Part shown: positions 21,901 through 24,900 of the stretch, one piece after another
Layout of the letters: the number at the start of each line of letters is the position of its first letter
How positions within the stretch are numbered: position 1 is the stretch's first letter
Assembly (NCBI RefSeq): GCF_022045235.1
Contig: NW_027266267.1
Coordinates: 42,656,001 to 42,720,000 of the forward strand
Reading direction: 5' to 3'
Source: Haliotis cracherodii
Taxonomy: Eukaryota
DNA: 64,000 nt
Program-made: the position numbers and the translations under genes
The notes under the pieces: model-generated
Told to the model about the DNA's origin: nothing
The model's input: the letters and a program-made list of their open reading frames with translations, nothing else
Database searches by the model: none

Positions 21901-24900
21901 CTACTCTACACAAACATACCATTACACCTACCTCTACCCATGCATACCATTACACCTACCTCTATACAAGCATACAATTACACCTACCTCTATACAAGCA
22001 TACCATTACACCTACCTCTACACAAGCATACCATTAGACCTACCTCTACACAACCATACCATTAGACCTACCTCTACACAACCATACCATTACACCTACC
22101 TCTATACAAGCATACCATTACACCTACCTCTATACAGCCAGTATAACATTACATCTACTCTACACAAACATACCATTACACCTACGTCTACACAAGCCTA
22201 CCATTAGACCTACCTCTACACAAGCATACCATTACATCTGCTCTACACAAGCATACCATTACACCTACCTCTACACAAGCATACCATTAGACCTACCTCT
22301 ACACAAGCATACCATTACACCGACCGCTACACAAGCATACCATTACACCAACCTCATGCCGATGCGACGTTAAATTTTAACTCACTCACCCCATACAAGC
22401 ATACCATTACACTTTTCTCTATACAGGCAGTGTACCATTACACCTACCTCTATACCGCCAATATACCGTTATACCATACCAGGTACGATATATTCATAAC
22501 AGCCTACCTTTATCCCGGTTAGAACTTCATTCATGAACTTCAGCCTCTGATCCTTGACAGTTAGGCGTTTATTGTGGAACTTCCTCAAGTAAGTCGATAT
22601 CTTGAAATTGATTGGCGCCAGGACTACCATGACGGTGATGCCGGCAAAGATTGCCACCCCGATTGTCTGGTACAGGAAGTAGAGGCCAACGCTGAGCATG
22701 AGTGGTGCCGACCACAGCACCCACAGACTGCTGGTGACTTCTCGAACACGTGCACAGTCCACGGACATCATGTTGACGATGGCGCCAGTCGTGTACTGTC
22801 GCCTGGATTCATTGTTCATAGTCAGGGCCTGGGAGACCAGAGGAACCAAACCGAAATCATAAGAATTACTTTGTGTATGTTCAATGGAGAATTAATCTTC
22901 ATAAAGTCAGGGCTAGGCTGTTTTAACATCCAAACTTGCTATATAATGTCATTTAAAACATATTAAACGCGTTTTCATTTTCTTAACAATAAAAATGAAA
23001 ATGAATCTATCTATTCCTACCAGGTACACCCATTCACTGCTTGGCCAACATTTAGCATTTCAGTTATTGAGTAATAAACCCAGACAGCTTAAGAGTCAGG
23101 TTCAATAACACGCTAACCGCTTGACTGCCAAGCTGATCAAAATGTAACTTTTAAAAAAAGTTCTGTTTCAGCTTATATTGGGATACATTTTACCTTCCTA
23201 TACGACCCCTGAATATCCAGGTTAGACAAGGCCTTCAACACTCCAAGCTTGCCGGAGGAGCGACTATCCTTGTCGAAAGCGGCGATTAACGCGATCAGGT
23301 GGTCAGGCTCACTGACTTGGTTGATGTATGTCATTGTATCCCAATTGCTTGGGTCGATGCTCATGATATCAATAATTGAATTGCCATGTTCAGATTTTGT
23401 ACAGATCGCCTTCATATAACCAACCAACCAACAAACAAACCTTCTTATACACAGCAGTGACAAGGGCAGTCTTGATCTTCAGGCCGATGTTGAAGGAGAG
23501 GAAGACACACTGGGACAGGACAATGGACTGGAACATGGATACAAGGAAGAAGGATGCCACGATCACATACCCCTTCCAGTCCGTCTTGCTCCCATGGTGC
23601 TCCACATACCAGATCAGCTTCCTGAAGGGAGGGAGAACACATGGTTACATATATGTCTCTTTGTCATCTTCTTAATGCTAATAACTTGCTTCAAATATTC
23701 TTTTCCAAAATAATTTCCCTACAGACGATTTCTTCTTGGTGTTGCTCCTTCTGTGTCCTCATTAATTTATTACTAGAATAGATTCTACGGGCATTATACT
23801 TACTTGAACAACACCGGGCTGAGAGAGTCATATCTCTGACACACTTACTTGAACAACACCGGGCTGAGAGAGTCATATCTCTGACACACTTACTTGAACA
23901 ACATTGGGCTGGGAGGGTCATTTCCCTGACACACTTACTTGAACAACACTGGGCTGGAAGAGTCATATCTCTGACACACTTACTTGAAAAACATTGGGCA
24001 GGGAGGGTCATATCCCTGACACACTTACTTGAACAACACCGGGCTGAGAGAGTCATATCTCTGACACACTTACTTGAACAACACTGGGCTGGGAGGGTCT
24101 TATCTATGACACACTTACTTGAACAAAACCGGGCTGGAAGAGTCATATCTCTGACACACTTACTTGAGCAACACTGGGCTGGAAGAATCGTATCGCGGAC
24201 ACACTTACTTGAACAACACCGGGCTGAGAGAGTAATATCTCTGACACACTTACTTGAGCAACAGCGGGAAAAGGAACTGGACCAGATCAGCACAGAATCT
24301 CAGCAGATGAGCCACCAGCAGTTCACTGCCGTACATCTTGAATAAAACTTTGACCAACGTCCACTTTTTGGCTTGACCTGTCCAGGATGACGTCTTCTTG
24401 TTCCTGATCTTCACGCCAGGGTGTGTGTCGAGCTCAGCGTCACTGGTCGCCCTCCTCACGTCTAGTTCCAACAGACCCTCCTTCTCTGCTGTGTCTGAAG
24501 CTTCAGTCTTCTTGTTCCGGATCTTCACACCAGTGTGTATGTCGATATCAGTGTCAGTGATAGCAGTTCTCACTCCCATTTCCAGGAAACCTTCCTTCTC
24601 TGCTGTGTCTGCAGCTTCAGTCGGCTTCTTTGATGTGATAGCTTCGTTGCGGTCAGTTTTGTTTCTAAAATAATGTAGAGTGTGTTGCTTCAGAGTAGCA
24701 ATAACCGGTCTTTGATTTGATTTGAAATTGCATTATGGGTAAGTGTGTCGGACCATGCCGTCTACCCTTGCAGTAGAAATATAAACCACTATATGATAGA
24801 AAAAAGTAATTTGGCACATTAAACGTTACACAAACAAGAAACAGTGTGTTATATGTGTACGTTAGAAATCATGTTTTGACCTGATGAAAAAAATACCACT

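Follow-up and report, generated by a model that had tools for sequence, protein, structure and literature searches.

An antisense retroposon lies two bases inside an intron of a transporter gene in the window analysed here (the whole stretch of 64,000 nucleotides from Haliotis cracherodii, to which all positions refer). The locus raises the question of how a gene can take up a mobile element at a 5' splice site and remain unbroken. The favoured reading, held at a probability of about 85%, is that a copy of an abundant abalone retroposon landed antisense at the donor, and that splicing continues at the exon-side copy of the duplicated target, with the tail of the element completing the donor. 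A slash in the motifs below marks an exon-intron boundary or an insertion point.

An MRP1/ABCC-type transporter gene was found on the minus strand of the 64-kb window, and the named proteins most similar to it come from Haliotis. Over one exon, identity amounted to 98% with H. rufescens, 91% with H. asinina, and 88% with H. rubra. Elsewhere in the genome, one locus matches a protein labelled H. cracherodii at 100% identity, as expected of an abalone. From exon 2 onward, 29 exons were joined into a frame of 1,647 amino acids with zero stops, and all 28 introns are GT-AG; this join uses five stretches beyond the window start, and the first exon was not located in it. The joined frame is 82-95% identical to three MRP1-like Haliotis proteins, the highest value being that of P0001 from H. 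rufescens (95%), where the Haliotis orthologues are computed gene models. The gene is placed among the transporters by an open frame with two ABC_membrane and two ABC_tran domains, as scored on the orthologue P0002 and one window exon. The host gene is therefore intact despite the insertion, and the original prediction that the element had not killed it is supported by the open frame and the GT-AG introns. The exon concerned (23441..23621, minus strand) is 181 nt long and ends in AVYKK at phase 0, as supported by the joined frame, P0001, and the ends of paralogous exons. It is followed on the same strand by a GT-AG intron of 612 bp (22829..23440), delimited by the joined frame, and by the next coding exon (22508..22828; ALTMNN...TGIK), delimited by the joined frame and a match to ABC_membrane (PF00664). 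All nine paralogous exons examined end at the same codon and continue with GT (9/9), and the three Haliotis orthologue models read directly into the next exon across the intron position.

Several further features of this gene were recorded. Eight of its 21 exons in the window have their donor within an array of tandemly repeated exon-intron junctions (361-701, 1339-2530, 9222-11552, 12087-12691, 16245-16958, 23798-24268, 29785-29946, and 31374-31987), with up to 32 exact donor 9-mers within one intron, and two acceptors (32899 and 35722) likewise lie inside junction-repeating arrays. In the H. rufescens model P0001, residues about 700-920 chain several 77-bp junction repeats, corresponding to window 16245-16958, as exons, and the model lacks exon 16112-16043; the junction array has probably misled the annotation and so given rise to the repeated pieces. 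A 114-bp in-frame tandem repeat (24392-24622) lies inside exon 24664-24254, in the linker region, with more copies in H. rufescens. A tandem ABCC paralogue on the same strand has its 3' end (63365-64000; also L008) immediately upstream of the host gene. Another paralogue (L006, 300 nt past the exon end, G000:C4 near 9202570) carries a second copy of its exon end and donor some 120 nt inside the intron, together with a stretch resembling a SINE tail.

The element itself is 235 bp long (23204..23438, plus strand) and thus antisense to the gene, with an intact 5' end as judged from the sequence and from copy alignment. It closes with a tail of period 4 (23417..23438, plus strand), composed of (AACC)n followed by (AAAC)n. 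Two 12-mers that are identical at 11 of 12 positions lie flush with its two ends. On the gene strand, the exon-side copy (23450-23439) consists of the final 10 bases of the exon and the donor GT (23440-23439), directly followed by the element tail, and the displaced copy (23192..23203, minus strand) encodes Tyr-Arg-Lys and then GT, which, given its sequence and the orthologue residues, is likely the exon end as it stood before the insertion. A flush repeat of at least 12 bp with at most one mismatch within 60 nt was found in none of 2,352 mismatched pairs, in which left flanks and tails were shuffled among other copies of the family, and the 12-bp duplication thus exceeds chance. The original prediction of a SINE inserted at the 5' splice site, with a 12-bp target-site duplication made of the last 10 exon nucleotides plus GT, holds in both respects.

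The length of the duplication bears on whether the donor GT belongs to the target. From 126 heads at loci picked regardless of their flanks, 33 gave a duplication, at a false rate of 1/3,000. Lengths of 12-13 bp formed the mode with 22 of the 33 resolved copies. The donor GT could instead be derived from the tail, leaving a duplication of 10 bp, and such duplications do exist in the family (2/33). As 12-13 bp is usual and 10 bp was resolved in these two copies, the GT is most likely part of the target and the focal 12 bp typical of the family. The repeat could also be read as fortuitous or as left over from the gene's own tandem junction copying, the element having arrived separately, and junction-copy arrays are indeed frequent in this gene. 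However, the displaced copy abuts the first base of the element and the exon-side copy its last tail base, an arrangement absent from all control pairs, and the repeat has the modal length of the family in its preferred T/AC context, which makes a separate arrival hardly credible.

Within the window, the focal element returned 12 further BLAST hits. Genome-wide, 6,478 exact copies of its 27-base head word were counted, and copies with an exact 11-base head number about 70,000 by an approximate hand calculation on control counts. A family consensus of about 250 bp plus tail was built from 34 copies chosen for an exact head. The focal copy is 83% identical to it, compared with 88-96% (median 94%) for these 34 other copies, and lacks about 27 nt ahead of the tail; it is an old copy. 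As a short, interspersed, high-copy, non-coding repeat with a simple-repeat tail and a direct duplication, the element has the characters of a SINE. A tRNA-derived origin (SINE2, including MESC/Meta HalSINE1) was rejected for want of a tRNA-like head with A and B boxes: no such boxes were found by a simple pattern, no tRNA was called in the window, copy 51177 had no Rfam match, and folding of the head gave nothing notable (z -0.66). Published Haliotis MESC elements are 327 bp long with a different terminal repeat (PMC4758252), and HalSINE1 is tRNA-headed (PMC4824008) and hence unlike the focal family.

Matetovici and colleagues described Haliotis LP-SINEs (Hdi_LP/Hmi_LP), among which Hdi_LP is 255 bp long with a LINE-derived head of about 70 bp (PMC4758252). 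The focal family shares with Hdi_LP the Haliotis host, a length of about 255 bp, the absence of tRNA boxes, a terminal tandem repeat, and target duplications (PMC4758252). The family head has a 17-base core in common with the LINE-derived head that the supplement to that work gives for scallop elements (PMC4758252), and the pattern flanking this core is also alike, both by eye. The family carries AATATT about 20 bases before the tail, where the published Hdi_LP hexamer before the repeats is AATATA; the focal copy has lost the segment bearing it. The family is thus probably the LP-SINE Hdi_LP, a name given from the published description and the head core.

Three donor-like sites, all on the minus strand and all matching 7 of 9 consensus positions, have to be weighed at the exon end. 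The proximal donor (23435..23443) reads AAG/GTTTGT, and its positions +3 to +6 come from the tail, as expected from the claim that the donor is now built from duplication plus SINE tail. The displaced donor (23188..23196), predicted 247 nt downstream as AAG/GTAAAA, does read so, and is presumably the ancestral one. A cryptic site, CAA/GTCAGT (23311..23319), lies inside the element, and its use would run through the in-frame stop. A score of 7/9 is the commonest class among the donors of the gene (13/28), although the gains differ: +5G/+6T in the proximal and +3A/+4A in the displaced donor. Duplex energies were -6.0 and -6.8 kcal/mol, respectively, within a range of -2.9 to -12.2 for the gene, and the proximal donor ranks 22nd of the 28; strength here means a count against the textbook consensus and a duplex energy against a U1-like motif. 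Another donor of the gene reads AAG/GTTGGT without a tail repeat behind it. Splicing at the displaced donor would lengthen the transcript by 247 nt, shift the frame, and reach an in-frame stop about 16 codons past the exon end. Because the intron position is conserved and the proximal donor is the only one to keep the frame, there is a strong case that the proximal donor is the one spliced.

Given the weaker pairing of the proximal donor with the U1-like motif, some leak to the displaced donor is possible. A stronger version would have both donors used meaningfully, the insertion having created a regulated, unproductive isoform bound for decay. This would agree with the equal consensus counts, with the slightly better pairing of the displaced donor, and with the third 7/9 site within the element. 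Yet the displaced copy carries no frame and meets a stop within 16 codons of the exon end, and 8 of the 21 window donors precede tandem copies of themselves, so extra donors are common in a gene whose frame is still intact. A regulated second isoform is accordingly considered unlikely, and use of the proximal donor is retained as the working reading.

The insertion habits of the family were examined on the 33 resolved duplications, against a simulated null in which duplications may run on into the tail by chance. Duplications begin with AC in 9 of 33 copies (null 9%, p=0.002) and occur in the context T/AC in 6 of 33 (null 3%, p=0.0004). Across the genome, GTA was counted 2,710 times at the duplication register and 1,131 times ten bases further out, a 2.4-fold difference. 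The family thus mildly favours GT/A sites, a bias which may stem from the endonuclease or from pairing between tail and target, and GT/A is also the core of 13 of the 27 other donors in the ABCC gene. On the gene strand, each 4-base unit of the tail starts with GT, so that a tail joined in register gives GT-N-N-GT; this was the case in 7 of 9 AC-start copies and in 13 of 21 sites with the same geometry. The 4-base period would thereby usually supply +5G/+6T. Other SINE-like abalone repeats in the window (52200-52560 and 57800-58150) end in (ACTC)n, which read antisense resembles a consensus donor hexamer, and donor insertions of such repeats could be even better tolerated.

A bias of this kind could mean that the family actively targets 5' splice sites, for instance by pairing of its tail with the donor or by coupling to the spliceosome, and is designed to repair them. 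The 2.4-fold preference at the duplication register, the fit of the tail period to GT at +1/+2 and +5/+6, and the two donor cases seen here would all suit such an account. The full donor motif, however, occurred beside heads 114 times compared with 131 times for a shuffled motif, with about 97 expected from flank word counts by hand, and donor motifs are not otherwise targeted beyond the GT/A bias. AG/GTA was found at the duplication register of 233 sites, 90 of which were read (the first 30 listed and 60 of the next 70, the 10 omitted being mostly near-duplicates or variant heads). The focal geometry was present in 38, and 1 of these marks the end of a recognisable coding exon; the Pfam search took in only the 8 longest frames from the AG/GTA sites, and short or untranslated exons would be missed. 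By chance, 0.7-1.7 coding-donor matches are expected among the 38, assuming 150,000-250,000 donors of which 20-30% are AG/GTA. From the 114 donor-motif sites, 60 were fetched, 26 had a duplication call, and 7 ended at GT; none of the 13 inspected was coding-like. None of the 30 tail-side sites read (of 245) was coding-like either, one ending at a GT present in both copies. Coding exon ends among these 13 and 30 candidates were judged by eye and frame length, and three loci recur between the candidate sets. Design by targeting is therefore regarded as very improbable. Recurrence lies near the rough chance rate and fits neutrality, and the one case is compatible with moderate selection or enrichment too.

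The second case was found in a gene resembling FGFR homolog 1, where a copy of the family follows the donor GT (L264:249-810, plus strand; G000:C6:33583000-33583900), as identified from duplication, frame, and proteins. It has a 13-bp duplication with 2 mismatches, a new donor AG/GTTTGT, and a displaced AG/GTAACC, and its exon carries an immunoglobulin domain (Pfam). The annotated FGFR-like proteins P0024 and P0025 leave the frame exactly at the proximal site, at phase 1, and continue with other sequence. Whether the family as a whole heals itself at donors, with GT/A bias and tail period together rebuilding +5G/+6T so that landing is nearly neutral, is a tentative proposal given somewhat less than even odds. 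If it is true, tens of abalone genes would carry retroposon-built donors, each beside a frozen old exon end, and would offer a natural series of donor swaps together with dated snapshots of ancestral codons.

The age of the focal insertion was assessed in three related organisms (X7, X9, and X11), about 4-5% diverged. The exon-tail junction was bridged by contigs in all three (3/3). Under a 31-letter rule the head-side junction was bridged in X7 only (1/3), with shorter ends overlapping in X9 and X11, and no joint skipping the element was listed in the three. Raw reads of the source organism itself (X18), sampled at roughly 1 in 100, covered little beyond the repeat core. As the junction is common to these relatives, the insertion is old and predates their split. 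An empty allele was not found in a DNA search of the own genome, which gave the locus alone, and a metagenome scan for an empty-site orthologue gave 5 loci of 38-42% identity, none orthologous. No similar window was present among the other genomes searched, and the ABCC paralogues are too distant for comparison of the intron.

The single mismatch of the duplication falls in a codon, so that the exon copy encodes Tyr-Lys-Lys and the displaced copy Tyr-Arg-Lys. At this residue the orthologues have Arg in H. asinina and H. rubra and Lys in H. rufescens, and in the wider family Arg occurs in 4 of 23 proteins, Lys being usual. Of the 36 single-base changes that the 12-mer allows, 1 produces the outgroup residue. 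Among the differences listed for the relatives (40 of 240), none lies at 23198 or 23445. The displaced copy probably keeps the codon that was present at insertion, and the live exon would have changed from Arg to Lys later, a direction drawn from two orthologue proteins and the displaced copy and weakened by the prevalence of Lys in the wider family. As the displaced copy encodes the H. asinina/H. rubra residue, the empty site should carry an Arg codon, and the predicted empty site TAAGAAG/gtaaaatgt is thus probably wrong at one base.

Taken as a sequence of events, the family, with its duplications of 12-13 bp and its preference for sites reading GT/A on the opposite strand, would have had its target nicked by the partner LINE directly behind the donor GT, with the tail then copied from that end. 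Target-primed reverse transcription is the standard mechanism for such nick-and-copy insertion. A tail in register would then give GT-N-N-GT and restore +5G/+6T in place of a +3A/+4A donor, both scoring 7/9. The exon-side donor would win, with any use of the displaced donor leading to a premature stop, and the allele, presumably near neutral, would have become common to the related species before the live exon changed from Arg to Lys and the dead copy kept the old codon. No special explanation is needed, since an ordinary 12-13 bp duplication, a mild GT/A bias, and a 4-base tail period suffice.

The locus is thus a clean instance in nature where most of the intron bases of a donor have been replaced by a mobile element with the gene left unbroken. 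It indicates how a gene can survive this: the duplication preserves the end of the exon together with the GT, and +5/+6 are restored through the period of the tail. The displaced copy would be a fossil of the exon end that keeps the outgroup codon, and the insertion, being common to relatives, is usable as a phylogenetic marker. No new splicing chemistry or donor targeting is revealed.

The nearest parallel is the merle allele of dogs, an antisense SINEC_Cf at the junction between intron 10 and exon 11 of PMEL with a 15-bp duplication of the acceptor (PMC7349775). Both cases combine an antisense SINE at an exon-intron boundary, a duplication that copies the splice site, and a tail that supplies a splice element, although this element is a poly-T polypyrimidine tract in merle and a 4-base period in the abalone (PMC7349775). 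Merle furthermore affects an acceptor and is polymorphic, and its tail length alters splicing and phenotype (PMC7349775), whereas the abalone insertion affects a donor, is common to several species, and has no sign of damage. Mammalian transposable elements tolerated at no more than 20 bp from an exon lie preferentially at donor sites, as donors tolerate near insertions since only about 6 intron bases matter (PMC3088655); the abalone element, in contrast, lies inside those 6 bases, and its tail replaces four of them. For the L2-type element ZfL2-2, tail and target have bases in common at about 80% of 3' junctions (PMC2666801), a microhomology that resembles the AC start of the abalone family, although ZfL2-2 belongs to a different LINE clade. 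In the parts consulted, the published account of LP-SINEs describes no target-site bias or splice-site insertions (PMC4758252), both of which were found here, and a literature search in which most subscription journals were not covered gave nothing on abalone SINEs inserted at splice donors. The type of event is thus known in kind from merle, on the acceptor side, and the explanation by tail period, the preference for certain sites, and the fossil codon add a little to it.
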